The notes under the pieces: generated by a model | Databases searched by the model: none | The model's input: the letters and a program-made list of their open reading frames with translations, nothing else | What the model was told of the DNA's origin: nothing | Shown: one piece after another, positions 5,858 to 64,000 of the stretch | Position numbering within the stretch: the first letter of the stretch is position 1 | Layout: each line of letters opens with the position of its first letter | Program-made: the position numbers and the translations under genes | Source of the DNA: a virus | IMG/VR virus record: IMGVR_UViG_3300050026_000388 | Span: 38,176 to 102,175 of that record | Strand: one strand, 5' to 3' | DNA: 64,000 nt

Positions 5858-7561
5858 ATGCCACCTAAGAAACCCAAACGCACCCCCGAACAAACCGCCC
5901 GCCTACGGCAGTTTGACGCTATGTTGCGCGCCTTCAAACGAGTCCAAATGAGGGTCGGCGCAGTTACTATCAACAATGCCATCAAAAAGGACAGGGGCAA
6001 CATCAGTTCAATCTTATCACACGGCGACATCAACAGAATAAAACAGGAACTCAACCACTACTTCCGCGCGACATCGCCAGTGATATGGCGCAACGCGCTT
6101 AAACAAGTTTGGTTAGACGCCGGCGCGGCTAGCATTGAGCTACACCACTCATTCTTCACTGGTACAAAAAGTTCAACATATGATGATGAACTTGATATAG
6201 AACAAAAGGATTGGTGGGATTCTGAAGCCGATGAATGGGCACCCCTACCGGAATTTGACTTCTTTACTAACGTTACTAAAGCCGCCGACCCACCCGATAC
6301 ATGGGCGCAGTCGGTTGATGATTACCTTCGCGGAAACGGAGCTGGAAGGGCGGACGGGATTAGTTCAACAACCGGCGACCAAGTGATGAACGCGATAGCA
6401 GACGGCGTGGCTGCCGGCGAACCAACACGAGACGTAGCAGCCCGCGTGGAGTCGCAACTTGACGAGACGTGGCCGGGACGCGCAGACACCATCGCGCGCA
6501 CGGAAACCGCGGCGGCAACGAATCAGGCTTCTTTAGAGGACGCGAAGGCAACTGTTCCAGGAATGAATAAGACGTGGATATGCTCGTTTGTAAACTCAAG
6601 AGAATGGCACCAAGATGCCGACGGCCAGAGTGTGCCGCTTGAAGAGCCGTTCATCGTGATGGAAGAAGAGTTAGACGTCCCAGGCGACCCTAGTGGCGAA
6701 CCGGAAAATGTGATTAATTGTATGTGCTCGGTTGGCTACGAGTCGCCAAGCGGCGAAGAAGTTGGCGAAGGTGAAGAAGCTGCAGCCCCAGAACTCACTG
6801 ATGAGCAAACAGCTCAGCTTGCGGATATGTTCGACCAGTTAGCCGCCGGCGAGGGCGAGCTGACTCCTGAAGAAGGTACAAATATAGCTGATGGCATAAG
6901 TAGTATTATGGGTACATCGGCAGAGGGCGCACCAGAAACATACACAGATTATAAAGACGCATATAATGCGTTTCAACAGTACGCTGATGACACCCTAACA
7001 AAGGATGAGCGGAAACTTGTAACAGATTACACCATACGCGAGTTCCAGCCAATCAACTACTTTTTGCGCTACGGAGGGAAAGCCGGCTGGGGACCAGACT
7101 TAACTGCGGACATTGAAGCTGAAGCTAATAGTATGGTTGGAATAATACAAAACGCCCCACAATTTGAAGGAACAGTTTATAGGGCGGTATGGACCCCATA
7201 CATTAGCGATTTTTATACACAGCTACAAAGTGCGCAAGTCGGTGATGAGCTTTCGTTTGCTGGAATAACTTCAACGTCGGCCGAACCCGATACGATGGGT
7301 AATATTTTAGAGGCCATGAAGCAAAGTGGAGTTACCGGAAACAATCAAATTTATTATACAATAGAAGATGCTAAAGGAGCCGTTATACAACCCTTAAGTG
7401 GAATGCCGCAGGAAAATTTAAATGAGGTAGTACTCAATGACGGTGTGAAAGGAGAGATAACTAACATTAAAGAAGTACAAGACGTAGAAGGGCGCACACA
7501 ATGGCCAAATCACCCAAGTAATTGGAAGGATAAGTTGTATATAACTGTGAAGATGTTGTAG
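5858..7561 (+). CDS. Minor head protein (SPP1 gp7/MuF) fused to C-terminal VIP2-like ADP-ribosyltransferase domain
   Basis: MuF: RADTIARTETAAA, KTWIC, SREWHQDADGQ, PGDP..ENVINCMC. ART: DYT..FQPINYFLR, VYR (R442), STS (S472), NEVVL (E523). Confidence 0.88.
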   Translation: MPPKKPKRTPEQTARLRQFDAMLRAFKRVQMRVGAVTINNAIKKDRGNISSILSHGDINRIKQELNHYFRATSPVIWRNALKQVWLDAGAASIELHHSFFTGTKSSTYDDELDIEQKDWWDSEADEWAPLPEFDFFTNVTKAADPPDTWAQSVDDYLRGNGAGRADGISSTTGDQVMNAIADGVAAGEPTRDVAARVESQLDETWPGRADTIARTETAAATNQASLEDAKATVPGMNKTWICSFVNSREWHQDADGQSVPLEEPFIVMEEELDVPGDPSGEPENVINCMCSVGYESPSGEEVGEGEEAAAPELTDEQTAQLADMFDQLAAGEGELTPEEGTNIADGISSIMGTSAEGAPETYTDYKDAYNAFQQYADDTLTKDERKLVTDYTIREFQPINYFLRYGGKAGWGPDLTADIEAEANSMVGIIQNAPQFEGTVYRAVWTPYISDFYTQLQSAQVGDELSFAGITSTSAEPDTMGNILEAMKQSGVTGNNQIYYTIEDAKGAVIQPLSGMPQENLNEVVLNDGVKGEITNIKEVQDVEGRTQWPNHPSNWKDKLYITVKML

Positions 7562-7575
7562 CAGGAGACGTAATA

Positions 7576-7689
7576 ATGCCAAAAACTAAAAAGTTGACTG
7601 AAAAGGAAAAATTAGAGCTTGCCGCGGCGCAGAGATTTACTGACAGTGAGGGTATAACTTTAGTTCCAAAAAAGAAGGCCAAAAAATGA
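7576..7689 (+). CDS. 37-aa micro-ORF, candidate immunity peptide of the MuF-ART toxin
   Basis: Not in the ORF track; AGGAG RBS upstream; MPKTKKLTEKEKLELAAAQRFTDSEGITLVPKKKAKK; stop overlaps next ATG (ATGA). Confidence 0.6.
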   Translation: MPKTKKLTEKEKLELAAAQRFTDSEGITLVPKKKAKK

Positions 7690-7952
7690 AAGACAACCTA
7701 TGCGAAGCAATGCTGCGCCCCTGCGACGCCATCCGCGGCGGCAGTGAGTGTCAGATGTGCCAGATGACTTACCTAGTAAAAGAGTTGAGAAAGATAAAGG
7801 ACGAATTAAAACTACTGAACACACGGCTCTTTCCAACCCCCTATAAAGAATCGGACTTTAGTAATACCCAAACGGCAAACACTGAATGGAGGGGTACACA
7901 CTGGTATACGCCGAGTGATGGGCAATGGCAGTACCCAAAGAAAGACGAGTAA
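7686..7952 (+). CDS. Hypothetical Cys-containing protein
   Basis: ORF coupled to upstream micro-ORF; C-x6-C, CQMC. Confidence 0.55.
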   Translation: MKDNLCEAMLRPCDAIRGGSECQMCQMTYLVKELRKIKDELKLLNTRLFPTPYKESDFSNTQTANTEWRGTHWYTPSDGQWQYPKKDE

Positions 7953-8001
7953 ACACCTAAGCGCCTAATCGCAACCATATTTACCGTAATCATAATCATC
8001 A

Positions 8002-8790
8002 ATGACACGAAGAAACGAACGTGTAGAATTTAGGGAATGTATTATCTGTGGGTTTTGGGTAGTATCTAACCTAGTAGGATATCGGCGCGGGTTAGTTTAT
8101 TGCCCTAGCTGTCGAGATGTTCTTACGCGGAAGAAGAACGCGTTGATATGGGATAAAAATAGGCCAAAGTATTATGCGGCCATGGCTATAAAAGCAAAGG
8201 AAAAGTGGGCTGCAATTAAAGCTTCAGCAAAACCTAAGCTAATAAAATGTGGTATATGTGGGAAGATTATAATACAAAATTCTGGTAACCATAAGTACTG
8301 TAATGATTGTAAGACCGAATCACGCCGCAGGAACAGTAAAAACTGGCGGACAAAGAACCCAAAACAATATAGAGCTCTTAATCGAAAGCGGAGATTAGAA
8401 GACCCAGAATCTGAAAGAAAACGTAGTAGAGTATACTGCCATCAGAACTTAGATAAGTATAGGATATATGCACATAATCGCCGCGCACGGATAGAAGGCA
8501 ATGGCGGCACACATACAATTCAAGAATTGAACAACTTATTTAAAGAGCAAGATGACCTCTGTTATTACTGCGGCACCAGCATTTTTAGAAATGTTAGGAA
8601 ATCATATCATATAGACCATAAACTCCCGTTATCACGGGGTGGGTCTAATGACATTCACAATATAGTCTTAACGTGTCCAGCGTGTAATTGGAAAAAGAGG
8701 ACACTTACAGATATTGAATTTTTATCTCTATATGAAAAAAATGAAGAGGACACAAACTCTGGAACCAAAGTTGGTTCGACAAATCAATGA
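8002..8790 (+). CDS. Free-standing HNH homing endonuclease with N-terminal Zn ribbons
   Basis: CYYCG...HIDHKLPLSRGGSNDIHNIVLTCPACNWKK. Confidence 0.92.
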   Translation: MTRRNERVEFRECIICGFWVVSNLVGYRRGLVYCPSCRDVLTRKKNALIWDKNRPKYYAAMAIKAKEKWAAIKASAKPKLIKCGICGKIIIQNSGNHKYCNDCKTESRRRNSKNWRTKNPKQYRALNRKRRLEDPESERKRSRVYCHQNLDKYRIYAHNRRARIEGNGGTHTIQELNNLFKEQDDLCYYCGTSIFRNVRKSYHIDHKLPLSRGGSNDIHNIVLTCPACNWKKRTLTDIEFLSLYEKNEEDTNSGTKVGSTNQ

Positions 8791-46106: not shown

Positions 46107-46540
46107 CGATTAACGAAATCAAGTTTGACCCAACGCCGAAGGTGCAGCGCAGCAAGAGGAATACCCTTTTCCAGATGCGGCGGAAGTTGGTGTTTATGCA
46201 TTATCCTTCTGATGCTGACGTCGATGAACTTGGTGCAAAGCCCTATACCGATATGGAAGATTATTTGACCGGCGCTGACGGGACGGGTGTGTGGGCGGAT
46301 ATTGATACGCCGCATCCGGATGACGTGTTGATGGCTGCACAGCATGGTGAGGTGTTGACGCACTCCATACTCGTGCGGTATGATGAGCGAATCGACCCGC
46401 GCCAAATCATAAAGTACACGAATCGCCAGACGGGCAAATCAGATTACTGGTGGATAAGGACCCTTGTCCGCCCTGATTTTGAATATCATTATCTACGAAT
46501 CGGCGCGGAGCAAATCATCGAGTACGGAGTGGATGAATAA
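46103..46540 (+). CDS. Head-closure (head-tail joining) protein
   Basis: VWADI...THSILVRY...YLRIGAEQ; position before gp10-like gene. Confidence 0.75.
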   Translation: MTINEIKFDPTPKVQRSKRNTLFQMRRKLVFMHYPSDADVDELGAKPYTDMEDYLTGADGTGVWADIDTPHPDDVLMAAQHGEVLTHSILVRYDERIDPRQIIKYTNRQTGKSDYWWIRTLVRPDFEYHYLRIGAEQIIEYGVDE

Positions 46541-48069
46541 TGGTAGCAAGTAGTAGCTCATCAAGCGGCAGCCTCAGCATGCATGTGGAAGACGCCTCAC
46601 TTGCTAAGGTGCTTGGGAGATTCCGAACAATAAGTGAGGAATCTAATGTTAGTTTGGCAGCGGCATTAAACCAAGGAGCCCACATCGTTGAAACTTCGGC
46701 TAAGAGCAAAGTGCGCGTTAAGACGGGTAGGTTGAAGGGCTCAATACATGTAATAAACGCAACGCCAGAACGGCTCGAATCTCAGGTTATAGCAGACACT
46801 AGCTATGCTTGTGTGTTTAATGCGCAAACAACAGTCGTTACGGCTAATGGTCAACGAACCATCGGGCAAATAAAAGAAGGCGACCGCGTCCTTACACAAA
46901 CTGGAGAATATAAACGAATTATAGCCACCAATCGGTTCTTAGCAGAATTAAAGCCAGAGTTAATCACGATAACCACAGCACACAATAAAGGTGGAACTCA
47001 TAAGCTGACTGTAACAACCGACCACAAAATATTAACTCACCGAGATGGGCGCAATCAATGGATACACGCTGGTGATTTAACATTGACTGATTCCTTATAC
47101 ACTAAAATAAAAATTGCACATAATAAAGGAACGGCGCCGATAAAGACGTGCATAAACTGCGGCACAGACTACCACTATCGCCGAGGTTATGATGGTTCTG
47201 GGCAATTTTTCTGTTCGCGAGATTGTCAGTATAAATATTTACGGGGACTCCACGGGACACATTTTGGCAAGAAACATTCCACAGAGACTCGTGCGCAAAT
47301 GAGTGATATAAAGATTAAACAGAATCGCGAACATCCAGAAAAGCACATAAATTGCGTGCGCACTCGACGCGGTTTTAACACAAACATCGAATGCGAGGTA
47401 GAAGAATGGATTAAGAAATCAGGCAAAAGATACCAAAAACAACATAGGATTGGTGGTTGTTATGTTGATTTCTATTTACCTGACGACCGCGCGGTAATCG
47501 AAGCCGATGGTGCATTTTGGCACCAAGACCAAGAAAAAGATATTTCCCGTGATGAAGAGATAAAAAGGGCTGCACCAGACACCACCATATTACACATCCA
47601 TTTTTATAACAAAAGATACAGCCAAAATTTGATTCCAAACCCCCTAAAAGAGGTGTATTACGTCGCGTGCAACCCTGGGATGTCTAGTTTTGTTGACCCC
47701 ACCGTGTTTAAATTAACGCCGATTCTCAAACTAGAACCTTGGACGTACAAAGATAAACGCAAATCTAAGAGAGGTGCCAAGCATTCGCTCTACGACTTAA
47801 CTATCGAAGATGTTCATAGCTTCTATGCAAATGGTATTCTAGTTTCTAATTCTTATGTAGAAAAAGGAACCCAACCACACGTCATCGTTCCCGTAAGCGG
47901 CCAAGTTTTACACTTCACCGTCCAGTCGGGAGACGAGGTTTTCGCACAGAGCGTGCAGTCTCCAGGCAGCCAAGCGTATCCCTTCATGGAGCCCGCACTT
48001 ACGGAACACACGGAAGATATTAAAGCAAGCATACTGCTCGCGCTGCAGATGGAGATGATGAAACTTTGA
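46540..48069 (+). CDS. HK97 gp10-like tail-completion protein interrupted by an intein
   Basis: VKTGRLKGSI...DTSYA|intein|SYVEKGT...AYPFMEPAL; splicing restores YAxYVExGT. Confidence 0.9.
   Translation: MVASSSSSSGSLSMHVEDASLAKVLGRFRTISEESNVSLAAALNQGAHIVETSAKSKVRVKTGRLKGSIHVINATPERLESQVIADTSYACVFNAQTTVVTANGQRTIGQIKEGDRVLTQTGEYKRIIATNRFLAELKPELITITTAHNKGGTHKLTVTTDHKILTHRDGRNQWIHAGDLTLTDSLYTKIKIAHNKGTAPIKTCINCGTDYHYRRGYDGSGQFFCSRDCQYKYLRGLHGTHFGKKHSTETRAQMSDIKIKQNREHPEKHINCVRTRRGFNTNIECEVEEWIKKSGKRYQKQHRIGGCYVDFYLPDDRAVIEADGAFWHQDQEKDISRDEEIKRAAPDTTILHIHFYNKRYSQNLIPNPLKEVYYVACNPGMSSFVDPTVFKLTPILKLEPWTYKDKRKSKRGAKHSLYDLTIEDVHSFYANGILVSNSYVEKGTQPHVIVPVSGQVLHFTVQSGDEVFAQSVQSPGSQAYPFMEPALTEHTEDIKASILLALQMEMMKL
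46810..47850 (+). mobile_element. Intein (347 aa) with Zn finger, NUMOD3-like motif and Vsr/DUF559-type endonuclease
   Basis: Block A CVFNAQTTV, block B TTDHKIL, blocks F/G LYDLTIEDVHSFYANGILVSN followed by Ser; VDFYL...IEADGAFWH. Confidence 0.9.
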
Positions 48070-49653: not shown

Positions 49654-50070
49654 ATGTCATCCACATACAATGACCTAACAGCGGATATACAAGTAATAAA
49701 CACAACGTACGCCGCCGCGGGTGCAACAGGATTACACAACCCAGACCTTGTAACGGGTGTGAGTTGCGGCACGTCTGCCAAAGGCGACAGTTTCACCAAT
49801 ACCGGACGAGAGTTCGTGTATATCACGAATGGAACTGGCACAGACCTACAAGTCACCATCAACGACCAAAGTGTTTGCACGCACGGCTTCGACCACGATG
49901 TTGTATCCATTATCCCCACCGGCGGCCATTCAGTAATGCTTGGCCCATTCCCGGTGAAATGGTTTACGACAACGTGCCTCATCGACTACGATGTAACAAA
50001 GAGTGGGACCTCACCGAAAATCTTTATTTTCCAGCTACCGACGGTATCGCCGGGGCCAGGGCAGGGTTGA
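49654..50070 (+). CDS. Tail-associated beta protein (paralogue 1)
   Basis: KGDSFTNTGREFVYITN...DQSVCTHGFDHDV...GPFPVKWF. Confidence 0.65.
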   Translation: MSSTYNDLTADIQVINTTYAAAGATGLHNPDLVTGVSCGTSAKGDSFTNTGREFVYITNGTGTDLQVTINDQSVCTHGFDHDVVSIIPTGGHSVMLGPFPVKWFTTTCLIDYDVTKSGTSPKIFIFQLPTVSPGPGQG

Positions 50071-50086: not shown

Positions 50087-50569
50087 ATGACATCATATGA
50101 TGCACAACACACGTACACCATTGGAGTTACACCATACTACTTCGTTGACGTTACCAAAGGCGTGCAAGACATAACAACAACGTACAGTGCCGATTTGACG
50201 GCTGTTGGTACTATCCCAACATTCGACACTATCAACACCGGCACCGAAGCTGGACCTACACCCGCCGCTGGAAATAAAGGCGACAGTTTTCAGAATAGCG
50301 GACGTGAGTTCGTATATATCAAGAACGCAGATGCAGTAAATCCACTCACGGTCAGATTCATTGACCAAAGCTTCTGTGACCATGACTTCGAACACGACGT
50401 TATAGCCACTGTGCCTACTAGTAACGGAAAGTTCTTCGGCCCGTTCCCTGTGAATTGGTTCACGGGGGTATGTTTGATTTGCTATGGCACACCGCCAACG
50501 CAAAGCACGGTAACGACCGCGACCATAGGCGTTTTCCTCCCCGAAAGTGGAGCTGGAGCTAAAGCGTAA
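50087..50569 (+). CDS. Tail-associated beta protein (paralogue 2)
   Basis: KGDSFQNSGREFVYIKN...DQSFCDHDFEHDV...GPFPVNWF; GGAGGTGA RBS. Confidence 0.65.
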   Translation: MTSYDAQHTYTIGVTPYYFVDVTKGVQDITTTYSADLTAVGTIPTFDTINTGTEAGPTPAAGNKGDSFQNSGREFVYIKNADAVNPLTVRFIDQSFCDHDFEHDVIATVPTSNGKFFGPFPVNWFTGVCLICYGTPPTQSTVTTATIGVFLPESGAGAKA

Positions 50570-51833: not shown

Positions 51834-54800
51834 ATGGTAGGCTCATTGGCAGATTTGATGGTGACTATATCCGGGAATGCGTCCGGCCTTAAAGCCGCCC
51901 TCGGCGAAGCGGAAACGAGCACGGCATCGTTCGGCTCCAAGCTAGGTAGCGCGGCTAGTCTGGGTGCCGCCGGGTTCGGCGCCGCAGCCGTAGCTGTCGG
52001 CGCTTTCGCCATGAAGTCTGCCGCTGATGTTGGTGGTGCCTACAAAGATATAGAAAAACAGACCGGCCAAACGGGGGCCTCCCTTGATGCGCTTAAAGGT
52101 AACTTTAGGGATGTATTCTCAAACGTTCCTGAAGACGCGGGTACTGTTTCTACTGCGTTGAGTGATGTTTACGACAAGAGTAAAACCCTCAACGGCGGGG
52201 TGGTGCTAACCGGTCAAGGACTAGATACGTTAACCACAAAGTTCCTTAACTGGTCGCGTATCAGTGGGGTCTCAGTTTCATCCTTAGTTGATACAACAAC
52301 CGCATGGGCGGGCGCGTGGCACATGAGCGCTTCGCAAGTCAGCGACTCAATGGATACAGTAGAAAAAGCATCACAGGCGACGCACGAGGATGTTGGTACG
52401 CTTACCTTGGACATACAAAAAATGGCCCCTGCTGCTACACAGCTAGGATTATCATTCAATGAAACTACCGCCGATGTTGCTGGCTTTGAAGAAGCAGGAT
52501 TGAAATCCACTAGCATCACATCCGCGATGAACAAGACGTTTGCCGACGCCACTAAGGCTGGTAAAGATGCTCATACTGAATGGGAACAGGATATCAATAC
52601 ATTAACAAAATACACAACTGCAGTCCAAAGCGGCAATAAAGCCCAAGCGGAGGCTATAACAAAAACTAGCGATTGGAAGCAGGTTACTACCGACTTCTCG
52701 GCTAGGACGCTCACCCAGTTGGTTACCGCCGTCGGCGAAGGCAAGATGGGTGTTGCCGACTTGAACAAAATGCTGGAAAACAGCAGCGGTGACATCAACA
52801 AGACGGCCGGCGACACTAAAACTTTCTCACAAAATCTTGCAGAGTTTAAGAATAAATTAGAAGTCGCATTTGCACCGTTAGGCACAGTAATATTCACTCT
52901 TCTCAATAACTTACTATCCGCGATAACCCCCCTTATTCCTATCATCACTGCGTTGGTTAGCGCATTCGCCGCGGTGCCTGCACCAATACAGCTAGTCGTC
53001 ATGGCGGGCGCAGCGCTTCTCGGCGGCGTGGGCGCACTCCAACTTATACTCGGCAAGTTCAACATGAGCATAAGAAGCTTACCAGGTGATATTAATCAAT
53101 TAATCCCAGTAATCAAAAACCTTGCCTCAACAATGATGAGTGTGCCGTCGAAGATTATGAGTTTAGGTGGTGGTGCCGGCCAGGGTGCTGCAGAGACGGA
53201 AGCCGAAGCCGTCGCGTGGCAAGGGGTAACTGCATCGGAAGCCGAAGCAACCCTGGGTGCGGCGGAGTATGCCGCGGCTCAGGCAGGGGTAGGGGTGGAA
53301 ACCGAGGCCGAGATGGTAGCTTGGCAAGGGATTACTGCATCCGAAATCGAAGCTGCCGGTGGTGCTGAAGCATTTGCTGCGGCTCAGGCATCAGCTGCTG
53401 CAGCCATAGGAGCAACAGACGTAGCAGCGGGCGTTGAAGACACAGAAATTGCTGCTGGGACACTAGGCGAAACGCTAATGGCGGCCGCTGCGTGGGCTGC
53501 ATCAATCCCTATAATGATTGTGGAATCTCCTTTACTAATAATAGTCGCTGCTGTTGCGGCAATCGTCGCCGGTTTTGTTCTTCTCTATGCAACATCAAGT
53601 ACATTTAGGGATATGGTTGGGGGGATTCTTAACGCCATCCAGCAAGTAGTCGGGTGGGTTGAAAAACTCGTTGGCGCGCTGATGTCCGGTAACTTCTCGC
53701 AGGCAGGCGACTTACTCAAGCAGGGGTTCCAAGGCGCGATTGATGCTATATCACATTTCGACTTTGGTGCGTGGGCCGGCAAGATGGTCACAAGCGTCCA
53801 AGAATCTGTAGGGACTATATCGGGTTTAATCGGCGGCGCTTTTGATAAGCTTAAGAATATTGATTGGGGTGGTATGTTCGCGGGCATGCTTGATTCACTT
53901 GATAATGCCCTCACTGGCTTCCTGACCACGCTTGAAAATTCTGACTGGTCTGGGATGGTCACTAATCTTATTAATGCCATTGGCGGTGCGTTTGATTCGT
54001 TATTTGGTGGGGGTGATACTAGCGGAGCAGGCGGAACCGTATCTAAGGGTATGAGTACTGGACTATCGGCTGGAGTAACAAAGGCCGGACCGGACATAAT
54101 TGGCAAACTAGGTGATGTACTCAAGAAACTACTAGAAATCGCCCCTGAAATATTCTATAAAATCGGAACGGCGCTACTTGAAGCTCTCGGAAAAGTAGAC
54201 TGGGGAACGGTCTTTAATGAGGTAGGCAGAGTTCTCGTCAAAGCGCTGAAGGCAGCATTGGGAGAAGTAGCAACCGCCGCGCTTGAAGCGATAGGTGGTG
54301 CGCTCGGTGGCGCCGGCGGCGCTATTGGTGGCGCGTTTAGTGGTATTGGTGCGGCTATTAGCAGTGCGATAGGTGGCGCGTTGAGCAGCGCGGGTGGCGC
54401 TCTTGGCGGCATCGGTGACTCAATCAAGAACTCAATCGTAGGCGCGCTCAGCGGCATCGGCGGCATATTAAGCAGCGCATTCGCTGGGGCGGGTAGCGCC
54501 CTCGGAAACATCGGCAACACATTAAAGAACGCCGTAAGCGGCTTCGGTCAATGGCTCTACGACGCGGCGATTAATAACTTCCAATTTGCCACTAAATTCT
54601 ATCAGAGCCTATACAACACCGCACGGACGTATATGGGTGGTATAGGAAAATGGTTGTATGATGCGATTATGACCCTCTACCAGTTCGACGTGAAGTTCTT
54701 TACTCAGTTGATGAACCAGGCCAAGAACTTCATGGGCGGCGTCGGTAAATGGTTCTATGATGCCGCCATAAGCGCGTTCCAGTTTGATGTTAAATTGTTC

Positions 54801-57800
54801 CAAGCGGTTATAGATGCCTTTGCAACGTTTGGCGATAAGTTATGGGATTTGGTAAAGGATTTAGGCGGCAAACTAAAAGCCGATGTGTGGGATAAACTTG
54901 CAGCGTTTGGCACTTGGTTGATTCAACAAGCCGCCTCAATCGGCCAGAAAATACATGATTGGATATGGGGGCCATTAGCAGCATTTGGCGGCTGGATTAT
55001 TGACCAATTATCATCAATCGGTCAAAAGATACACGATTGGATATGGGGGCCGCTGGCAGCGTTTGGCGGCTGGATTATACAACAGGCAGCAGATATAGGC
55101 ACTAAAATTTGGGCGTGGATTCAGAGTGCCGTTGGCACCTTCGGCTCGTGGCTCGAGGGGCTAGTCAGCGGAATCGGAACTAAGATTTATGGGTATATTA
55201 CGGGTGCAGTAGGTGGGTTCGGCACGTGGCTTGGTGGCCTCGTAACAGGGATAGGCTCAACAATATACTCTAGTATTACTGGTGCGGTTGGCGGCTTTGG
55301 CACATTTTTAATTAACCAACTCACAGGCATTGGACAATCGCTTCTTAATGATATAACGAATGTGGACTGGGGTTCGTTAGGTAGCACCGTCGCTAACGCG
55401 CTGAAGAACGCCTTAACCAACACCTCCATTTCAGTAGATACGCATATCCCTGGTGTTGGGGTTGTATCAATCACCCTAGCGGCTGGCGGTATCGCTGATA
55501 GTGGCACATTAGCACTCATCGGTGAAGCCGGCCCCGAAGCAGTTATCCCGCAGAGCATGTGGGGTGGGGTGGACCCTAAGATACTCGCGTCCTTACCACA
55601 TTACGGTAGCGGCGCAGTTGTCGGTTCTTCTAGCGCTGGAAACATCTACGGCGCGGATAACACCGTCGACTCATTTGGATTAACCCCTGCGATGCGGGAA
55701 ATCGCAAACCTCAACGCTAAGGAGGTCGATAGCACCGGTCAGCTTGTCACCAATAGCGCTCAGACGGACACCCTATTAACTACATTTACTAGTGGGCAGA
55801 CGGTTAGTGCGGTGATGGCCGCGGCAAATACTAGCGCAACCCAGATTGCCGCTGCCGCGACGAGTACTACTGCTGCGGTTACTACCAGCACAGCCACCAA
55901 CACTACCGATTTAACAGCTCTCCAAGCCGCCACCACTACCGATTTAACATCCATCCAAACCGCTATAACCACGGGGGTAGCGTCTATTACTACTGCCTTG
56001 ACAAGCGCATTAGACCAAATAAAGAGTAGTATTGCCAGCGGACTAGCGAGTATCCAGAGCGGTATCAATAGTGGGCTAGCGAGCGTACAAAACGCTATTG
56101 CAAGCATTAAAAGTAGTGGCGGTACTACTGGTGGTACATCAACTGGCACGAGTTATACAGGTGGTACAACCAGCAGCGGCGACACCAGCGGCGGCGGCAC
56201 AAGCAGCGGTGACACTAGCGGCGGCACAAGCAGCGGCACCTGCTCAACGTGCGGCCTAAGCAGCGGCAGCAGCGGCACAAGCAGTGGCACAAGCAGTGGC
56301 ACAAGCAGTGGCAGTAGCGGTAGCATCGGCAGTAGCGGTAGCAGCGGCAGCAGCGGCACAAGCAGCGGCAGCGGCATCGTACTATATGTCGGGTCACAAT
56401 GTCCGCACTGTGCATCATTAGAATCATCGTTATCCGCAGCCGGTATTCCATTCACAACAGTGGTCGACCCTTCAAGTTTGCCAAGCGGGGGCTCAACTGT
56501 TCCTGAAGCGGTAGTAAATGGGCAGGTTATCCCATATGCTGGTGACGATGCTTCAATGGTTGCTGCCGTAAAATCTGCATATACCAGTACTGGCGGCGCG
56601 AATGCGGGTAAAAGCACCAGCGGCGCAACCAGCGGCGCAACCAGCAGCGGCACAAGCAGCGGCAGCAGCGGCAGCGGCAGTAGCGGTGGAAATATCAGCA
56701 TCCCAGTAAGCCCAATAAGTGATGAGTCCTTAAGTGCAAGTTGGGGTGTAACTGATGAAAGTTTACCCACTAGCGCTTCTAGCATATTAGACCAGATGCA
56801 GAAGACATACGGTATAGTATGTTCTACCTGTGGGGTTGCAGCAGATACCACCACACAACAGACAAAAGAAAATACAGAGCTACAACAGTGGTATAAGTTA
56901 CTAAACTCTGGCACCCTGACCGGTCAGCAAAACCAAGTAGCTATCGCACGCATTACGCAACTCCAGTCGATGACCAACGTGCAGGCGCTACAGCAAACTA
57001 ACCTACTAAACACCCAAAACGGCACACAAACGATGAACATCGCCGCTATGAACACGACGGCTGCTAAACTAAACAATCAAATCGGCATAGCGGAGATGGA
57101 GTATGAGGCGCACGGGAACATCAACGACAAATTCACCGTGAGTAATGCCGCGCAGGTGATGGGTAATGGTATTTTATCAGAGATGAACCTTCACGTTAAT
57201 GCGCAGGGCGACCTCGTCAATCAACAAGGAGATATTATCGCCAAAGCCGATGAGCAGTTAAGTGTGAATGAGGTCGCCATACGGGCGCAACAAGCGAATA
57301 TTGCAGATGTTCAGAAACAAGTAGATGCTAACCAACAAGCGGCGATACAGCAGCAAGCGGCGTTTAATACGGCACAGCAGCAAGCGCAAGCATCAGGCGC
57401 GGGTGGTTTTTGGTCCGGTGGTGGCTATACCGACACAGGCACAGGAACCCCTGAAAGCTTAGGAAATGTTGCCGCAGAATCAACTGATGTAGGTGGTAGC
57501 CCCGCAGATAAAACAACTGGTTCATTTGGGTCCGGGTATATCGACACAACAGGGGTGTGGCGGCCGGCAGGAAGTGAGGACCTGTATCCAGCCGCCGCGG
57601 GTGGTGGTATTGTCACTTCTGCCACCACCCTCCTCACCGGAGAAGCAGGCGCAGAAGCAATAATTCCACTCCAAAGCAGTATCGGCACCGACTTCTTCAG
57701 TAATCTATTTTCATCATTAGGGATTACCAATATCCCAGGCGATGTTAATAATACAATGAATACCCTGTTTAGCCAATTATCAAGCGCATTCGGCACAATC

Positions 57801-58745
57801 GCTGGCGGTGTGCAAACTGTTTCTAACCTTTCAGAAGGAACTGATAACTTCGCTAAGAGTTCAGGCAAGCTCAATGAAGGGGTCAACAACCTAACAAACA
57901 GCGTAAGCCAAAACTCAACACAAACGCAAAACGTCGCAACGAGTGCTTCAAACTTCAACAATCAAGTCGTTAACCTGACGTCGCAAGTAAGCGATTTAAG
58001 CAACGTAATAAGCACCATCACGACCACTATAAACGGGGTAACCACAACTAAAACGACTACGGGCGGCGGCGGTGCGACAGCGACAAAGACGGCTGCGACA
58101 AAGACGGCAGCGGCTACACCAACAACAGGAGCAGCAACTAACGCGAGCGCCGTAGTATGGGGCGACAACACATCTACCGTAATAAATGAGGGGGTAAATT
58201 CCGTTGCAACAACAACAGCAAAGACGGCAACCACCGTATCAGACGCATTAGCCCAAGTTGCGGCTTTGAAAGCGACGCTGGCAACGAAACTCGCAGCAGC
58301 ATTGTCAGCAGGAAATGCTGCAGTCTCGGCGGCAACCGCAAAAGTAGCCAACCTCCTTAGCAGCTCTGCTGCCGTTCAATGGACTAGCGGGCAACCATAT
58401 CCTGTTGTTAACGGAGAAACCGTGTACCCCACCGGTGGTGGAACCCCAATGCAGGTAACACAGCACCCAGGAGTACACGTGCTGGGTCAAACTGGCGGCG
58501 TACTCACGCGTGCAACGCGCCTGATGGCCGGCGAGGCTGGCGCTGAGGCGTTGATACCGCTTACCGGTTCAATTGGGGTTAACTTCTTTAAGGATTTGTT
58601 TAAGTCCGCAGGGGTAACGCCGGATTCGAGCGGGGAGAAACATATCCATTACCATATTGACGCTGTGCATGTCGTTGACAATGATGAAGTGAAAAGACAA
58701 ATTTTCAACGCAATGCATGAGCTAGAATTATACAATCACATGTGA
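51834..58745 (+). CDS. Tape measure protein (2303 aa) with embedded glutaredoxin-like domain
   Basis: N-terminal LADLMVTISGNAS, aromatic 11/22-aa repeats, three GEAG.EA.IP motifs, CPHC domain. Confidence 0.93.
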   Translation: MVGSLADLMVTISGNASGLKAALGEAETSTASFGSKLGSAASLGAAGFGAAAVAVGAFAMKSAADVGGAYKDIEKQTGQTGASLDALKGNFRDVFSNVPEDAGTVSTALSDVYDKSKTLNGGVVLTGQGLDTLTTKFLNWSRISGVSVSSLVDTTTAWAGAWHMSASQVSDSMDTVEKASQATHEDVGTLTLDIQKMAPAATQLGLSFNETTADVAGFEEAGLKSTSITSAMNKTFADATKAGKDAHTEWEQDINTLTKYTTAVQSGNKAQAEAITKTSDWKQVTTDFSARTLTQLVTAVGEGKMGVADLNKMLENSSGDINKTAGDTKTFSQNLAEFKNKLEVAFAPLGTVIFTLLNNLLSAITPLIPIITALVSAFAAVPAPIQLVVMAGAALLGGVGALQLILGKFNMSIRSLPGDINQLIPVIKNLASTMMSVPSKIMSLGGGAGQGAAETEAEAVAWQGVTASEAEATLGAAEYAAAQAGVGVETEAEMVAWQGITASEIEAAGGAEAFAAAQASAAAAIGATDVAAGVEDTEIAAGTLGETLMAAAAWAASIPIMIVESPLLIIVAAVAAIVAGFVLLYATSSTFRDMVGGILNAIQQVVGWVEKLVGALMSGNFSQAGDLLKQGFQGAIDAISHFDFGAWAGKMVTSVQESVGTISGLIGGAFDKLKNIDWGGMFAGMLDSLDNALTGFLTTLENSDWSGMVTNLINAIGGAFDSLFGGGDTSGAGGTVSKGMSTGLSAGVTKAGPDIIGKLGDVLKKLLEIAPEIFYKIGTALLEALGKVDWGTVFNEVGRVLVKALKAALGEVATAALEAIGGALGGAGGAIGGAFSGIGAAISSAIGGALSSAGGALGGIGDSIKNSIVGALSGIGGILSSAFAGAGSALGNIGNTLKNAVSGFGQWLYDAAINNFQFATKFYQSLYNTARTYMGGIGKWLYDAIMTLYQFDVKFFTQLMNQAKNFMGGVGKWFYDAAISAFQFDVKLFQAVIDAFATFGDKLWDLVKDLGGKLKADVWDKLAAFGTWLIQQAASIGQKIHDWIWGPLAAFGGWIIDQLSSIGQKIHDWIWGPLAAFGGWIIQQAADIGTKIWAWIQSAVGTFGSWLEGLVSGIGTKIYGYITGAVGGFGTWLGGLVTGIGSTIYSSITGAVGGFGTFLINQLTGIGQSLLNDITNVDWGSLGSTVANALKNALTNTSISVDTHIPGVGVVSITLAAGGIADSGTLALIGEAGPEAVIPQSMWGGVDPKILASLPHYGSGAVVGSSSAGNIYGADNTVDSFGLTPAMREIANLNAKEVDSTGQLVTNSAQTDTLLTTFTSGQTVSAVMAAANTSATQIAAAATSTTAAVTTSTATNTTDLTALQAATTTDLTSIQTAITTGVASITTALTSALDQIKSSIASGLASIQSGINSGLASVQNAIASIKSSGGTTGGTSTGTSYTGGTTSSGDTSGGGTSSGDTSGGTSSGTCSTCGLSSGSSGTSSGTSSGTSSGSSGSIGSSGSSGSSGTSSGSGIVLYVGSQCPHCASLESSLSAAGIPFTTVVDPSSLPSGGSTVPEAVVNGQVIPYAGDDASMVAAVKSAYTSTGGANAGKSTSGATSGATSSGTSSGSSGSGSSGGNISIPVSPISDESLSASWGVTDESLPTSASSILDQMQKTYGIVCSTCGVAADTTTQQTKENTELQQWYKLLNSGTLTGQQNQVAIARITQLQSMTNVQALQQTNLLNTQNGTQTMNIAAMNTTAAKLNNQIGIAEMEYEAHGNINDKFTVSNAAQVMGNGILSEMNLHVNAQGDLVNQQGDIIAKADEQLSVNEVAIRAQQANIADVQKQVDANQQAAIQQQAAFNTAQQQAQASGAGGFWSGGGYTDTGTGTPESLGNVAAESTDVGGSPADKTTGSFGSGYIDTTGVWRPAGSEDLYPAAAGGGIVTSATTLLTGEAGAEAIIPLQSSIGTDFFSNLFSSLGITNIPGDVNNTMNTLFSQLSSAFGTIAGGVQTVSNLSEGTDNFAKSSGKLNEGVNNLTNSVSQNSTQTQNVATSASNFNNQVVNLTSQVSDLSNVISTITTTINGVTTTKTTTGGGGATATKTAATKTAAATPTTGAATNASAVVWGDNTSTVINEGVNSVATTTAKTATTVSDALAQVAALKATLATKLAAALSAGNAAVSAATAKVANLLSSSAAVQWTSGQPYPVVNGETVYPTGGGTPMQVTQHPGVHVLGQTGGVLTRATRLMAGEAGAEALIPLTGSIGVNFFKDLFKSAGVTPDSSGEKHIHYHIDAVHVVDNDEVKRQIFNAMHELELYNHM
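54880..55330 (+). repeat. 22-aa tape-measure repeats
   Basis: IGQKIHDWIWGPLAAFGGWII occurs twice exactly, with degenerate neighbours. Confidence 0.85.
56113..56375 (+). repeat. Gly/Ser/Thr low-complexity linker (AGCAGCGGC-type repeats); second tract at about 56590-56690
   Basis: SSGTSSG repeats flanking the glutaredoxin-like domain. Confidence 0.9.
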
Positions 58746-59431
58746 AATCTTGGACAATGTTTATGATAAATAACGACACATTACCTACTATGAAACTAAG
58801 TGAAATTACTACGCCAAACTTAGCAGAGCGATTTTGGTCTAAAGTTGATAAGGGTGGGGATTGTTGGTTGTGGACGGCCTGCATCAATAACAAAGGATAT
58901 GGGGACTTTAGAGTCCGTAGGCAGACGCTAGCTGCGCCACGCGTCGCGTACCTATTAGAATATGGTGAGATTCCTGATAAGCTTCATGTATGCCATCACT
59001 GTGATAATCGATGCTGTGTGAATCCTAAACACTTGTTTGTAGGAACTAATAACGATAATATCCAAGATTCTGTGAGAAAAGGCCGGCGGAAGGGCCTTCC
59101 GAGAAAGCAGTACCCACATGGTGGGGAACTAAGCCCAGTCTCAAAGCTAACGTGGAATCAAGTTGGTGAGATTCGCTCGCGCTATAGATTAGGAGAAAGC
59201 GCAATTAGATTAGCCAAAGATTACCAATATGACTTATCTGGACTTTATCGTATATTGCGTGGCGAAACTTGGAAAGACCCCAGTTACATACCGATTAAAG
59301 TCAAGTGGCTCACTGAAGAAGAAAAAGAAGACATCCGCTTGCGCAAGAAGTGTGGAGAATCTGCAAAATCTATTGCAAAATTATACAGCCGAAGCATAAA
59401 TCGAGTTTGGCAGGTAGTGAGGGGAAAATGA
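58742..59431 (+). CDS. HNH_3-type homing endonuclease with C-terminal HTH
   Basis: RFWSKVDK..CWLW...VCHHCDNRCCVNPKHLFVGT..DN; start uncertain. Confidence 0.92.
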   Translation: MKSWTMFMINNDTLPTMKLSEITTPNLAERFWSKVDKGGDCWLWTACINNKGYGDFRVRRQTLAAPRVAYLLEYGEIPDKLHVCHHCDNRCCVNPKHLFVGTNNDNIQDSVRKGRRKGLPRKQYPHGGELSPVSKLTWNQVGEIRSRYRLGESAIRLAKDYQYDLSGLYRILRGETWKDPSYIPIKVKWLTEEEKEDIRLRKKCGESAKSIAKLYSRSINRVWQVVRGK

Positions 59432-60373: not shown

Positions 60374-61663
60374 TTGACAATCGCCTACGAATCAGTTGAC
60401 TCAGAGATTATATTACGTGACGGTAACTTGGAGGACTTGGGGGAAATCTCGAAGTTCATTTCACTCGAAGCTACTATAACGCTAAACGACGTTGGTTCGT
60501 GGCTCATTACAATGCGCCCCGATGATTTCCGCAGCCTTGAACAACTAGACATGCTCTGTGGAATAAACGTGTACCGCGATAAAGAGTTGATATTTGACGG
60601 CCCCATAACCGATATAAAAAACACGTATGTTTCCGGCGAACCGCTTATTTCACTCATAGGAGCCACGGATAACCAATATCTGAAGGATGCCGTATGCTAC
60701 CCAGTAGTACCCGGGCCGATAACCATCGGCGGCGGCGTGTATTTTTCGGATATCGCGGATGTAAACCAAACGCTGACGGTAGACTCAGCATTTCAGGGAT
60801 ACGACACGCGCAGCGGCCCCGCGCAGATTGTTATGCAGCAACTCGTGGATTATAATATAGGGCCGCACGCCTGTAAATATACCGTCGCGGTGCCGGAGGG
60901 GACCTATAATATCAACCGCAGCTTGTCTAACCTCGTTATCGGCCCTGGCGGCGGTATAGGTCTACCGATAACATCAAACGCGAGAGGGGACAACCTTCTC
61001 ACACAACTACAGAGCATCGCAGCAGCGGGGTGTGTAAACTTCCAGATAACCCTTCACGGCGGCCCGTATTCTGATTTTGACGGGACGTGGCTTGAATTTG
61101 ATACCTTTATCGGCCGTGACCTCACGCAAACCGTGGAACTGAGTGTCGAATCTGGCACGTTAAAAGAGTATGAGTATATCGTGAGCAGACCAAAGGGCAA
61201 TTTGATAATAGCCGCGGGGCCGAACGTACAGGCAAACCAACAGTTCTGGTTCGGCGCGGACCCAGATTCAATCGCGCAGTATGGAATGGTTGAAGAGTGG
61301 GCTAGCGGCGCTAGCGCGAACTCTCAGGACACCGTAGATGAGATTAATACTGAGATGGGGGCAAGCGTTAACACGTCGCTACTCAATGATGCGTATACTA
61401 CTTCAGTAACATTAACACTGCAGGAAACAGACCAACTCAGGTTCAAGCGAGATTTTGATTTAGGTGATAAGGTACGGGTGTGGGTTGATGATATTCCTGT
61501 CGATGAGACTGTAAGACAACTTTACTATGTGCTGTCCTCAAGTGGGACAGCGAGTGGTGGGTCGCTAGTAACAACGTTCAAACCACGGCAGACCTCTAAG
61601 GCGGTTCAACAAATACGACAGAACACAGAAGCGATTAATCGGCTTATGTTGCAGAAGGGATAA
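60374..61663 (+). CDS. Siphovirus minor tail/hub protein (ReqiPepy6 gp37-like)
   Basis: LNDVGSW...IFDGPI...FKRDFDLGDKVRV; TTG start assumed. Confidence 0.8.
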   Translation: MTIAYESVDSEIILRDGNLEDLGEISKFISLEATITLNDVGSWLITMRPDDFRSLEQLDMLCGINVYRDKELIFDGPITDIKNTYVSGEPLISLIGATDNQYLKDAVCYPVVPGPITIGGGVYFSDIADVNQTLTVDSAFQGYDTRSGPAQIVMQQLVDYNIGPHACKYTVAVPEGTYNINRSLSNLVIGPGGGIGLPITSNARGDNLLTQLQSIAAAGCVNFQITLHGGPYSDFDGTWLEFDTFIGRDLTQTVELSVESGTLKEYEYIVSRPKGNLIIAAGPNVQANQQFWFGADPDSIAQYGMVEEWASGASANSQDTVDEINTEMGASVNTSLLNDAYTTSVTLTLQETDQLRFKRDFDLGDKVRVWVDDIPVDETVRQLYYVLSSSGTASGGSLVTTFKPRQTSKAVQQIRQNTEAINRLMLQKG

Positions 61664-61667
61664 AAAA

Positions 61668-63341
61668 ATGATATTCGGCGCGCATGGTGGAATCATTGGC
61701 GATTTAAGTTGGGCAAAAGCGAACGGAATAAGTGAAGTCGGGTACGTATGTCAAGATGGGGGGCTTCACTCAGATATAGCATCATCGATTCGCGGGGCCG
61801 GTATGTCCCCGGTACTTAATACATTTAATGATAATCACGGTCCAGACGAAGACGGAAGCGGTTATGCTGGATTATTTAGCGCGTGCCGTGGCGTGTGGGA
61901 TATGGAAGCCGGCGAGGGGTGTAGCGCATCCGTGACCGGATATTGCTCGAACTATTTAACTTATGAGAATTACGGCGGCATTGTCGGCAGCAGCCAGGGA
62001 GATATGTACGCAGGTCCGTGGAGTCACGCAACGGGCGGCTATGGGCATCAGGATATACTCGAGACGTATGATAATTCTAATAATGTGGTCCTTGACGGCC
62101 AGCTTGTTAACTGCCTCCACTCTGCCGCTTCACACGGTTCAGCAATGTTGGGGTTGCTCATCGGGATATTCCCTGCGCTACTCCCTAACTATGATGCGAA
62201 CCAAGTTATAAACTTTATAAGTGGGTGCGGGGTTAATATAAGTAAAATTGTATTTTGGGGGGGCTATAACCAAGATGCTATTGGTATTATGCAGGGCTCC
62301 GGACTTTTTAGCGCGTTAAAATCGCACTATGGCGCGTCAAGCGGCGGCGGTGGCGGCGGAGCTGTGGCGGTAACCCCAACCACTATCTTTATACAATTCC
62401 ACACGAACCCCACCTGGTGGTGGCAAGGGAAAATAAACGCGGTTGCTGCAATATACGCCCATGCGTGGAAGGGTACTACCGCACATTCACTTAGCAGCAG
62501 CGAATTTCTTCAGGTACAAATTTCATGGGACCAAAAAAACTGGAGCGCGGTGAAATCACTCCATCCTGATGGCATCGGGTGTTGTGTGTTTACTGTATCA
62601 TTCGCAGGAAATCAACCGCATATGTACTTCCGTGTAGTTCAACGGGATACGGGTTATACCAGCAATACTATAGAGGGTTGCTGGGGGAAATGCACCGGAA
62701 CAAGTTCAAGCGGAGTAACAACGTCAACAACTGCATCACAAGCGACTTCCGCGTTTGGGACCTTCACGGCTGTAACCGGCTTAACCGGCGGCGGTACTAT
62801 GGCTGGAACGTGGACAACCGGACCGCATCTGTGGTTAGGAATTGCGGACCCTGGAACGGATTTAAAGACCTGCACGCAGACCGTAGGCGACATAGTACAC
62901 GTCTATGGGTTATCAGGAAAAATAGACAATAAAAGCGCGTGGGTCGCAGGAGCGTGGAGTAACGCGCTCGTTATATTGTATGAAAATGATGGAGGAACGT
63001 CGCCATCAACGTTGATAGGTGAAGTGAACCCCCCAGCCAAGACGGGACACTTTGATATATCGTTTAGCCGCCCCACCGTTGGCATGAAGCAGTACTATGC
63101 AAAAACAGGCACCAATACTTTTTCCCCGGGGATTACTGTAAACTGGGTTGCGGCGACGACCAGTGAGGGAACTGGTGACCAATCAACAGGTACGGACCAA
63201 ACAGACCAAACAGACCAAACAGTTACCCCTCCTGCGGCGATTCAATTTGATTTGCAACCAGTGGTTCCGGTGCCGCAACCGGTGACTACGGGAATCACAG
63301 TAGGGCTTCGGGATAAAACGCATAAGGGGCCAGGAAAATAG
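61668..63341 (+). CDS. Tail-tip protein: alpha/beta N-domain (possible hydrolase) plus Ig-like domains
   Basis: Position after hub; Gly and Thr/Ser linkers separate three domains. Confidence 0.5.
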   Translation: MIFGAHGGIIGDLSWAKANGISEVGYVCQDGGLHSDIASSIRGAGMSPVLNTFNDNHGPDEDGSGYAGLFSACRGVWDMEAGEGCSASVTGYCSNYLTYENYGGIVGSSQGDMYAGPWSHATGGYGHQDILETYDNSNNVVLDGQLVNCLHSAASHGSAMLGLLIGIFPALLPNYDANQVINFISGCGVNISKIVFWGGYNQDAIGIMQGSGLFSALKSHYGASSGGGGGGAVAVTPTTIFIQFHTNPTWWWQGKINAVAAIYAHAWKGTTAHSLSSSEFLQVQISWDQKNWSAVKSLHPDGIGCCVFTVSFAGNQPHMYFRVVQRDTGYTSNTIEGCWGKCTGTSSSGVTTSTTASQATSAFGTFTAVTGLTGGGTMAGTWTTGPHLWLGIADPGTDLKTCTQTVGDIVHVYGLSGKIDNKSAWVAGAWSNALVILYENDGGTSPSTLIGEVNPPAKTGHFDISFSRPTVGMKQYYAKTGTNTFSPGITVNWVAATTSEGTGDQSTGTDQTDQTDQTVTPPAAIQFDLQPVVPVPQPVTTGITVGLRDKTHKGPGK

Positions 63342-63378
63342 ATGCCACACGATAAACGCGACAAAACAGAAGAAGAAT

Positions 63379-64000
63379 ATTTCAAAGTTATAGGAGCTTA
63401 TAAATGATAAAAACTAGAGGATGGAGTCGGTTGCCTTATGAGTGAGGTCTACTTCCCCTTCAATTCGGGCAACGGGGCAATTGTGACTGAGCAACAATGG
63501 CAACAAATGGCGAGCTGTTGGGCAAAAACCGGCGTTAGGACTAGTGTAGATAGAACGCAAGAACTAAAGGTCAACGCCGACCCCGAAGGCGGCAGAGTTG
63601 TGATGGTGGACCCTGGTGTATGTTATATATTGGGGGAATATTACGCAACGGATGAACCTATTGAACTCTCTATTGATGAACCACCCACGACCTCTGGGCA
63701 GGTGCGCATTGATGCAATAGTGGCGAGATGTAAATGGGGCGCAAATGCGAAAATTGACCTAGAGGTAGTTGACGGGGTGCCTGGAACGCCGTGCGCCGCA
63801 GTAGAGATGTGGGACGCGAGCATGTATGGAACCGCTGGATACCCGCCGCCCGTATCCTCTGAACCAGGGGTTCAATACGACCTAGTACTAGCATTTCAAA
63901 GTTATAGGAGCTTATAAATGATAAAAACTAGAGGATGGAGTCGGTTGCCTTATGAGTGAGGTCTACTTCCCCTTCAATTCGGGCAACGGGGCAATTGTGA
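63379..64000 (+). repeat. Exact direct repeat: 63379-63486 equals 63893-64000 (offset 514 bp, runs off the window)
   Basis: Identical ATTTCAAAGTTATAGGAGC...GGGGCAATTGTGA at both positions. Confidence 0.95.
63438..63917 (+). CDS. Minor tail/baseplate protein, probably truncated at a duplication junction
   Basis: YFPF...EQQW...VDPG...RIDAIVAR...YDLVLA; the last codons derive from the repeated upstream sequence. Confidence 0.7.
   Translation: MSEVYFPFNSGNGAIVTEQQWQQMASCWAKTGVRTSVDRTQELKVNADPEGGRVVMVDPGVCYILGEYYATDEPIELSIDEPPTTSGQVRIDAIVARCKWGANAKIDLEVVDGVPGTPCAAVEMWDASMYGTAGYPPPVSSEPGVQYDLVLAFQSYRSL

Follow-up and report, generated by a model that had tools for sequence, protein, structure and literature searches.

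Tape measure gene and its inserted domain

The tail module of an uncultured peat phage, a siphovirus, encodes a tape measure protein (TMP) of 2303 aa that almost certainly contains a glutaredoxin fold; the domain is held between two Gly/Ser/Thr-rich linkers and is flanked on either side by an identical CSTCG motif. The phage is represented by a 102,175 nt contig in IMG/VR (IMGVR_UViG_3300050026_000388, with a CheckV completeness of 93%), and the window analyzed is the 64,000 nt stretch covering bases 38176-102175 of this contig; positions given without a contig name refer to the window. DNA identical to the stretch around the domain is present in several peat metagenomes.

On sequence evidence the open reading frame (ORF) at 51834-58745 is a genuine siphovirus TMP. 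It matches five TMP families of PHROG with E-values from 4e-24 to 1e-12, phrog_1272 (4e-24) and phrog_58 (3e-23) among them, and its N-terminal third exhibits 23-30% identity by tblastn to annotated TMPs from Roseburia, Arthrobacter, and Streptococcus phages. Hydrophobic stretches are found near residues 345-405 and 550-590, and the gene order is that expected for a TMP, with tail assembly chaperone genes upstream and Dit and Tal genes downstream. The linkers are real low-complexity DNA made of imperfect repeats with a period of 12-18 nt, and the Gly/Ser/Thr tethers immediately beside the domain are about 40 and 35 residues in length. An ORF on the minus strand (56153-56914) is taken to be a by-product of the repeat DNA.

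Glutaredoxin fold of the inserted domain

An earlier reading of the letters alone (the original prediction) had proposed that the TMP carries a glutaredoxin-like domain with a C-X-X-C motif and a TVP loop embedded between Gly/Ser linkers; this description is borne out by Pfam (PF00462), AlphaFold2 (AF2), VIA, and PHROG, and its positions are exact to the nucleotide, as TGC at 56241 encodes Cys1470, ATC at 56376 encodes Ile1515, and TGT at 56820 encodes Cys1663. Profile hidden Markov model searches and structure prediction both return a thioredoxin fold at residues ~1515-1585. The Glutaredoxin profile PF00462 scores 24.3 bits on the isolated 100 aa, above its gathering cut-off of 22.9, and 25.3 bits in the genome scan; the score over the whole 2303 aa protein is just 14.6 bits, and the match falls mostly on profile positions 1-29. 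HMMER aligns the domain end to end with a CPYC glutaredoxin (7ncv), placing CPHC on CPYC, GGSTVP on GGRSVP, and AGDD on GGDD. In the protein Atlas the domain sits among thioredoxin/glutaredoxin clusters at 0.92-0.93, and its ten best family-assigned matches all belong to the thioredoxin/glutaredoxin clan.

The AF2 model of the domain has a mean predicted local distance difference test (pLDDT) score of 75 and a predicted template modeling (pTM) score of 0.64, with elements in the order β-α-β-β-β-α. In model numbering the strands occupy positions 5-8, 30-33, 48-51, and 54-57 and the helices positions 16-25 and 62-75; the same elements are obtained in a longer construct of 215 aa. The CPHC motif occupies positions 13-16 with helix 1 beginning at 16. 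Foldseek searches of the PDB and BFVD with this model return thioredoxin-fold proteins only, with probabilities near 1; the BFVD matches include, at rank 50, an entry of 1162 aa (A0A1W5PTL2) that may be another long protein with such a fold. The best structural superposition found with VIA-align is mycoredoxin-1 (Mrx1, 2LQO; Z 8.9, 74 of 79 residues at a root-mean-square deviation (rmsd) of 2.1 Å), followed by cGrx1 (7C10; 8.2), E. coli Grx3 (3GRX; 7.8), BC3987 (7.7), and NrdH from M. tuberculosis (7.1), where a Z of 8-9 is not far above background for small folds.

The domain shares with class I dithiol glutaredoxins and mycoredoxin-1 the β1-α1-β2-β3-β4-α3 fold, a CPxC motif at the start of helix 1, TVP, and GDD, at an rmsd of 2.0-2.6 Å over 67-74 residues; the class I glutaredoxins, however, are free proteins of 8-10 kDa with the dipeptide PY, whereas here the fold lies within a 2303 aa virion protein and the dipeptide is PH. 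Of the determinants for glutathione binding, TVP and GDD are present and the basic residue is absent. NrdH-redoxins are characterized by a CVQC-type active site and a WSGFRP(D/E) motif. The translated domain has CPHC instead, displays no WSGFRP-like motif, and matches no NrdH model; the named NCBIfam subfamilies (YruB, Uxx-star, mycoredoxin, GlrX-dom, and Grx3) give matches that are all glutaredoxin-like and reach no cut-off, the best being the YruB family with 23.2 bits where 88.6 is required. With the NrdH motifs missing and every subfamily score below its cut-off, the domain is regarded as glutaredoxin-like rather than NrdH-like and is predicted to fall outside every named subfamily. Each of these lines of fold evidence is modest when taken singly; combined, and given the canonical placement of the motifs, they secure the assignment of the fold, and the presence of a real glutaredoxin fold inside a real TMP is held with high confidence.

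Cysteine motifs

The TMP contains six Cys in its 2303 residues, at positions 1470/1473, 1523/1526, and 1663/1666, which form three C-X-X-C motifs within 200 residues. The analytic chance that six randomly placed Cys form three such pairs is ~1e-8, and no such arrangement arose in 2,000,000 simulations. The two CSTCG pentapeptides are encoded by TGC TCA ACG TGC GGC and TGT TCT ACC TGT GGG; as all five codons differ, the pentapeptides are not a recent DNA duplication, and it is as protein sequence that their identity has been kept. A duplication or mobile insertion of DNA with the CSTCG motifs as its ends was rejected on the same codon difference and because no inverted repeats were found; the only repeat flanking the CSTCG-bounded segment is 22 nt at 77%. 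The segment was also considered as an intein and rejected by inspection of the sequence (no intein search was run), as it has no Cys/Ser start and no His-Asn before its end. In the AF2 model of the 215 aa construct, which spans both CSTCG motifs, only the glutaredoxin part is folded; both motifs have pLDDT <50 and no contact is seen between them, and at such values the model does not inform on whether they meet. The original prediction had placed these motifs in a Cys-rich virion, and this is only moderately true: the large appendage proteins have 1.6-2.2% Cys, but the chaperones have none, nor has the TMP outside residues 1470-1666.

The CxxCG motif is the classic metal knuckle of rubredoxins and zinc ribbons, and host thioredoxin serves phages in roles other than redox chemistry, as the processivity factor of T7 DNA polymerase and in f1 assembly. 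It is conceivable that the flanking motifs form a metal clamp, in which four Cys would bind one Zn or Fe within a chain or between TMP copies and so draw a loop shut at its base, while the glutaredoxin domain borne on the loop acts as a non-catalytic spacer, plug, or docking surface. The two motifs are identical, each is a C-X-X-C followed by Gly, and they hold the sole other Cys of the protein; related TMPs also carry modules rich in C-X-X-C, including a six-Cys knot, and these show no recognizable thioredoxin fold. The likeness to rubredoxin and zinc-ribbon knuckle pairs, however, ends with the two CxxC-Gly motifs and four Cys: here the knuckles are 190 residues apart, far beyond known ribbons, with a domain between them, and the AF2 model neither predicts a fold around them nor brings them into contact. 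CPHC, TVP, and GDD are all intact, which a domain acting only as a spacer would not require. The clamp is considered an unlikely reading.

Integrity of the fusion

Low-complexity linkers are a known assembly hazard, and it was considered whether the linkers had joined unrelated DNA into an assembly chimera. Logan contigs from four runs (X1 to X4) were compared over 55800-57200. In the likely source sample (X1) one contig of 9.7 kb spans all 1401 bases; in X2 a 698 nt contig covers 56033-56730 with zero differences and takes in the domain with both linkers and the first CSTCG; X3 has a contig over 55848-56477, and X4 has pieces at 56084-56407, 56423-56609, and 56643-56809. Short unrelated contigs do stack on the repeat DNA at 56322-56375 and 56642-56678; these are mismatched and continue into unrelated sequence. 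Both linker junctions are covered without difference by contigs from the three other peat samples. As far as assembled contigs go, this rejects a chimeric origin of the fusion, the misassembly that the original prediction had named as a danger; a chimera is considered extremely improbable.

Table 1. Positions of the TMP gene, of motifs and segments within it, and of neighboring tail genes in the window.
Feature	Position (nt)	Strand	Basis or remark
TMP gene, 2303 aa, single open frame	51834..58745	+	ORF list, PHROG, tblastn, neighbors
First GE.G.E..IP motif, residue 1230	55521..55550	+	Motif scan; TMP of the closest relative ends soon after
Gly/Ser/Thr linker 1, ~residues 1427-1514, includes first CSTCG	56112..56375	+	Translation, DNA repeats, pLDDT <50
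First CSTCG, Cys1470 and Cys1473	56241..56255	+	Translation
Glutaredoxin-fold domain (predicted), residues 1515-1585	56376..56588	+	PF00462, AF2, VIA, Atlas
CPHC active-site motif, Cys1523 and Cys1526, N-terminus of helix 1	56400..56411	+	Codons TGT CCG CAC TGT
TVP loop, residues 1555-1557, putative cis-Pro1557, directly before strand 3	56496..56504	+	Codons ACT GTT CCT
GDD after strand 4	56541..56549	+	HMMER alignment to 7ncv, on GG.DD of CPYC glutaredoxin
Gly/Ser/Thr linker 2, residues 1586-1619	56589..56690	+	Translation, DNA repeats
Second CSTCG, Cys1663 and Cys1666	56820..56834	+	Translation
Gln/Asn-rich segment, probably helical, in lineage-specific expansion	56841..57398	+	Translation
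Second GE.G.E..IP motif, residue 1936	57639..57668	+	Motif scan
Third GE.G.E..IP motif, residue 2233	58530..58559	+	Conserved TMP C-terminus follows
Tail-completion gene (HK97 gp10-like) with intein-like insert	46540-48069		Intein_splicing, Hint_2, DUF559/Vsr-type nuclease, and NUMOD3 matches
Tail terminator gene	48066		Followed by a few small genes of no assigned function
Two tail assembly chaperone-like genes	50640, 51176		Phage_TAC_6, upstream of TMP
Free-standing HNH_3 endonuclease gene, C-terminal HTH	58742-59431		Overlaps TMP stop codon; between TMP and Dit genes
Dit gene	59350		SPP1_Dit
Gp37-like Tal gene	60302		Sipho_Gp37

Relatives and origin

A phmmer search of 1.84 billion representative proteins with the domain gave one true match, the free 75 aa protein P0006, with 48% identity over 55 residues; the other three matches are repeat-protein artefacts. 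The free-standing redoxin relatives are 75-77 aa in length, are 43-48% identical over ~55 residues, and share CPxC, IPF, and (S/T)VP with the domain. A 77 aa gene near-identical to P0006 is located on a viral contig (L002:5989-6222); immediately downstream of it follow two ORFs (6371-6928 and 6962-8089) that make up a split NrdD-like gene, recognized by its C-terminal motifs as one for an anaerobic ribonucleotide reductase (RNR). As the nearest relatives are free small redoxins, of which one adjoins this gene, the domain is taken to derive from the small phage redoxins of nucleotide metabolism. The free NrdH/YruB-like redoxins of the P0006 cluster differ from the domain in that they stand alone, contain CPCC, and lack GDD, and the L002 copy has its nucleotide-metabolism context; P0006 gives a weak match to the NCBIfam NrdH model and the TMP domain gives none.

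The protein collection yielded six longer relatives of the TMP itself, and IMG/VR yielded ten loci. Across the first 430 residues the closest of them (L003) shows 79% identity to the TMP; it has 1095 aa and zero Cys, carries GE.G.E..IP just once, and stops a short distance beyond that motif, its C-terminus matching the last 95 residues of the 2303 aa TMP. The difference is a lineage-specific expansion of ~915 residues (roughly 1295-2210), which holds the glutaredoxin domain. The expansion is composed of helical repeats rich in Thr, Ser, and Ala, the linker-glutaredoxin-linker unit, a Gln/Asn-rich segment, and two extra copies of GE.G.E..IP (1936 and 2233). No other TMP with the domain was found by word searches of proteins of 1266-4031 aa and 40-128 aa, by pattern scans of IMG/VR, JGI metagenome, and GTDB genomes, or by a scan for the part of the expansion that follows the linkers, and tblastn of the 213 aa region and the 73 aa domain against 50,697 phage records returned no TMP, its only matches being weak ones to RNR subunits or free glutaredoxins; as all these methods start from a single sequence or reach close relatives, absence is not proof.

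In several related TMPs (P0008/L004, P0009, and L009/L010) a C-X-X-C module is located just before the first GE.G.E..IP motif. The module has a conserved strand-CxxC-helix pattern (LYL...C..C.Q.IA.HP) and is found at P0008 1215-1260, P0009 1120-1225, L009:13061-13420, and L004:6409-6666; in the P0009 and L009/L010 lineages it is followed by a cluster of six Cys. Homology of these modules to the glutaredoxin domain could not be established: a pairwise BLAST gives a suggestive 28 bits, but hhalign gives a probability of 12% and the Atlas no thioredoxin signal.

The GC content at third codon positions (GC3) is 0.34 in the domain (71 codons), 0.49 in the whole TMP gene, and 0.68-0.72 in the linkers; the low value weakly hints at a foreign origin of lower GC. 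It has to be weighed whether the domain is a neutral hitchhiker, a small phage redoxin gene captured in frame while the C-terminal half of the TMP grew through low-complexity repeats, and tolerated since without a role of its own. Such a capture would agree with the absence of the entire expansion from the closest TMP relative, with a domain that is a singleton in every database searched and has a GC3 below that of its host gene, and with a genome full of mobile elements. Three C-X-X-C motifs in an otherwise Cys-free protein, two of them identical in protein but not in codons, instead speak for selection, and the identical sequence occurs in at least four peat samples; a neutral hitchhiker is considered quite improbable.

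Proposed function

Copies of the TMP fill the lumen of the tail tube and exit through the tip ahead of the DNA, and peptidoglycan hydrolase motifs are found in the TMPs of mycobacteriophage TM4 and of T5 (pb2). The gp96 protein of Thermus phage P23-45 joins a virion RNA polymerase to a TMP, and this non-hydrolase works after ejection (PMC10770324). TMP cargo is thus not limited to cell-wall hydrolases. A full-text literature search found no thioredoxin- or glutaredoxin-fold domain in a TMP; where a paper names both, it refers to two different genes. That TMPs carry enzyme passengers is already known, and a redoxin would add to their range: P23-45 gp96 and the present TMP have in common a catalytic-type passenger in the tail ruler, which there is a polymerase and here a predicted redoxin. 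From the position of the TMP in the lumen, its ejection, and the P23-45 precedent, the domain is expected to travel inside the virion and to be expelled when the phage infects; tethers of this length may let the globular domains of the TMP copies queue in tandem within the narrow lumen.

It is proposed that the domain would be a working thiol-disulfide oxidoreductase, with the CSTCG pairs tethered on either side as its likeliest substrates. This arrangement of an enzyme between its substrates is suggested because an otherwise Cys-free protein brackets a C-X-X-C domain with two identical C-X-X-C motifs. The domain may form disulfides of the CSTCG pairs, shuffle them, or resolve them, either within one chain or between TMP copies, and this could provide a redox latch that is set in the particle and opened on meeting host thiols; action on host envelope or cytoplasmic proteins after ejection is considered less likely. 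The dipeptide of CPHC is that of the periplasmic disulfide oxidase DsbA, and in other thioredoxin folds it shifts the potential toward oxidation. The DsbA-type motif therefore points to the oxidizing end of the family, which would suit work outside the cytoplasm; the likeness to DsbA is limited to the tetrapeptide, as DsbA has ~190 aa with a helical insertion of ~65 aa whereas the domain has 73 aa and no insertion. Redox activity is predicted as the somewhat more probable state of the domain, and action on the CSTCG pairs in particular is a tentative proposal; the reading as a whole, in which a thiol-disulfide oxidoreductase is packed in the virion, is ejected, and probably acts together with the CSTCG pairs beside it, is considered evenly balanced.

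A number of points weigh against this reading. The AF2 input was a shallow alignment of 7 rows with effectively 2 distinct sequences, helix 2 has shrunk to a 10-residue loop in the model, the Foldseek E-values are just ~1e-2, and the VIA-align scores are close to background. The residues before the first Cys of the domain are Gly-Ser-Gln, so the basic residue usually found ahead of a glutaredoxin active site is absent, and the CxxCG form of the flanking motifs is that of a metal knuckle as well. The domain is known from a single sequence, and no variant or orthologue was found with which to gauge selection on the catalytic residues; recent capture could explain the intact motifs, and the low GC3 hints at a foreign origin. 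No electron donor or acceptor is evident within the virion.

The TMP position and the logic of ejection, together with the RNA polymerase of P23-45 (PMC10770324), would also agree with an effector that is ejected to act on the host, in which case the CSTCG motifs would be incidental or regulatory; the candidate targets are a disulfide-bonded envelope or receptor protein, a redox-sensing regulator of defence or stress, and ribonucleotide reductase. The nearest relatives are soluble redoxins, one beside a gene for a ribonucleotide reductase, and flexible tethers fit a domain that unfolds and refolds or acts at a distance. This leaves unexplained why two identical motifs bracket the domain as the sole other Cys, a CPHC of the DsbA type is odd for a cytoplasmic reductant, and no one target can be named; RNR was not found among the scanned ORFs, which is a weak negative as RNR families were not searched directly. 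An effector acting on the host is considered improbable, less so than a neutral passenger and more so than a metal clamp.

A comparison for the proposed oxidoreductase comes from eukaryotic viruses, as the poxvirus E10R-A2.5L-G4L pathway is a cytoplasmic disulfide pathway for virion cysteines with thioredoxin-fold proteins, a glutaredoxin-like G4L, and an Erv-type oxidase. The poxvirus pathway differs in belonging to a eukaryotic virus and in consisting of separate soluble proteins with an Erv-type oxidase; an Erv/ALR oxidase was sought in the phage genome and no homologue was found. Thiol oxidoreductases of poxvirus and mimivirus have been cited alongside the statement that no phage disulfide machinery is described to date (PMC13576161). 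Disulfide networks in phage particles are a current topic, with Milano, a siphovirus with disulfide-linked tail rings, and Jabs with ~1,700 disulfides. A redoxin within a virion protein whose own chain also bears two candidate substrate motifs would be a concrete object for this question, and redox chemistry would join the hydrolases and the polymerase in the range of TMP enzymes; the case is that of a single uncultured peat phage, with no domain-bearing orthologue found in the searches described, and its function is read from sequence and analogy.

A second thioredoxin-fold protein

A second thioredoxin-fold gene is encoded outside the window (L015:1285-1779, equal to G000:C1:6016-6510), ~2.6 kb beyond the tail genes in the circularized contig. 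Its 164 aa product has a basic N-terminus, one membrane span, and a domain with CPFC; it matches the Pfam families TraF (31.3 bits) and Thioredoxin (25.6 bits), with weak TrbB-like matches in NCBIfam, and this second phage-encoded redoxin probably faces outward. The gene sits among small membrane and coiled-coil proteins, which may be a lysis or envelope cassette. The membrane-anchored thioredoxin was considered as donor of the TMP domain and rejected, as merely 14 residues align with an E-value of 0.023.

It may be speculated that the phage has its own extracytoplasmic disulfide system, in which the TMP-tethered glutaredoxin and the membrane-anchored TraF/TrbB-like thioredoxin would set virion disulfides late in infection and create a redox-gated latch in the tail lumen; this two-part system is an unlikely construction at present. 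If true, virion disulfide chemistry would have its first catalyst encoded by a phage, and host thiols would open the latch to free the TMP and the DNA.

Genome and neighboring genes

The ends of the contig overlap by ~3.3 kb at 99.9% identity (window 60628-63896 against G000:C1:1-3269), and a 557 aa protein (61668-63341) recurs exactly at the contig start. Because of this overlap the genome is probably complete at ~99 kb and circularly permuted or terminally redundant; the IMG/VR entry says linear. Nearly all ORFs of at least 100 aa in the window are on the plus strand. The genome is unusually rich in mobile elements, among them a DDE transposase, an intein, and endonucleases of the HNH and LAGLIDADG types. 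Outside the window, a 661 aa LAGLIDADG homing-endonuclease ORF (L017:14035-16017) is positioned directly upstream of a Terminase_6C ORF and may reflect an intein-split terminase; an IS240-type DDE transposase gene lies elsewhere (L016:18776-19957).

Two adjacent small paralogues (49654-50070 and 50087-50569; phrog_38030) have the probable tail tube gene on one side and the chaperone genes on the other. Both contain a C.H.F.HD motif and have 3 Cys each, which may form a metal site.

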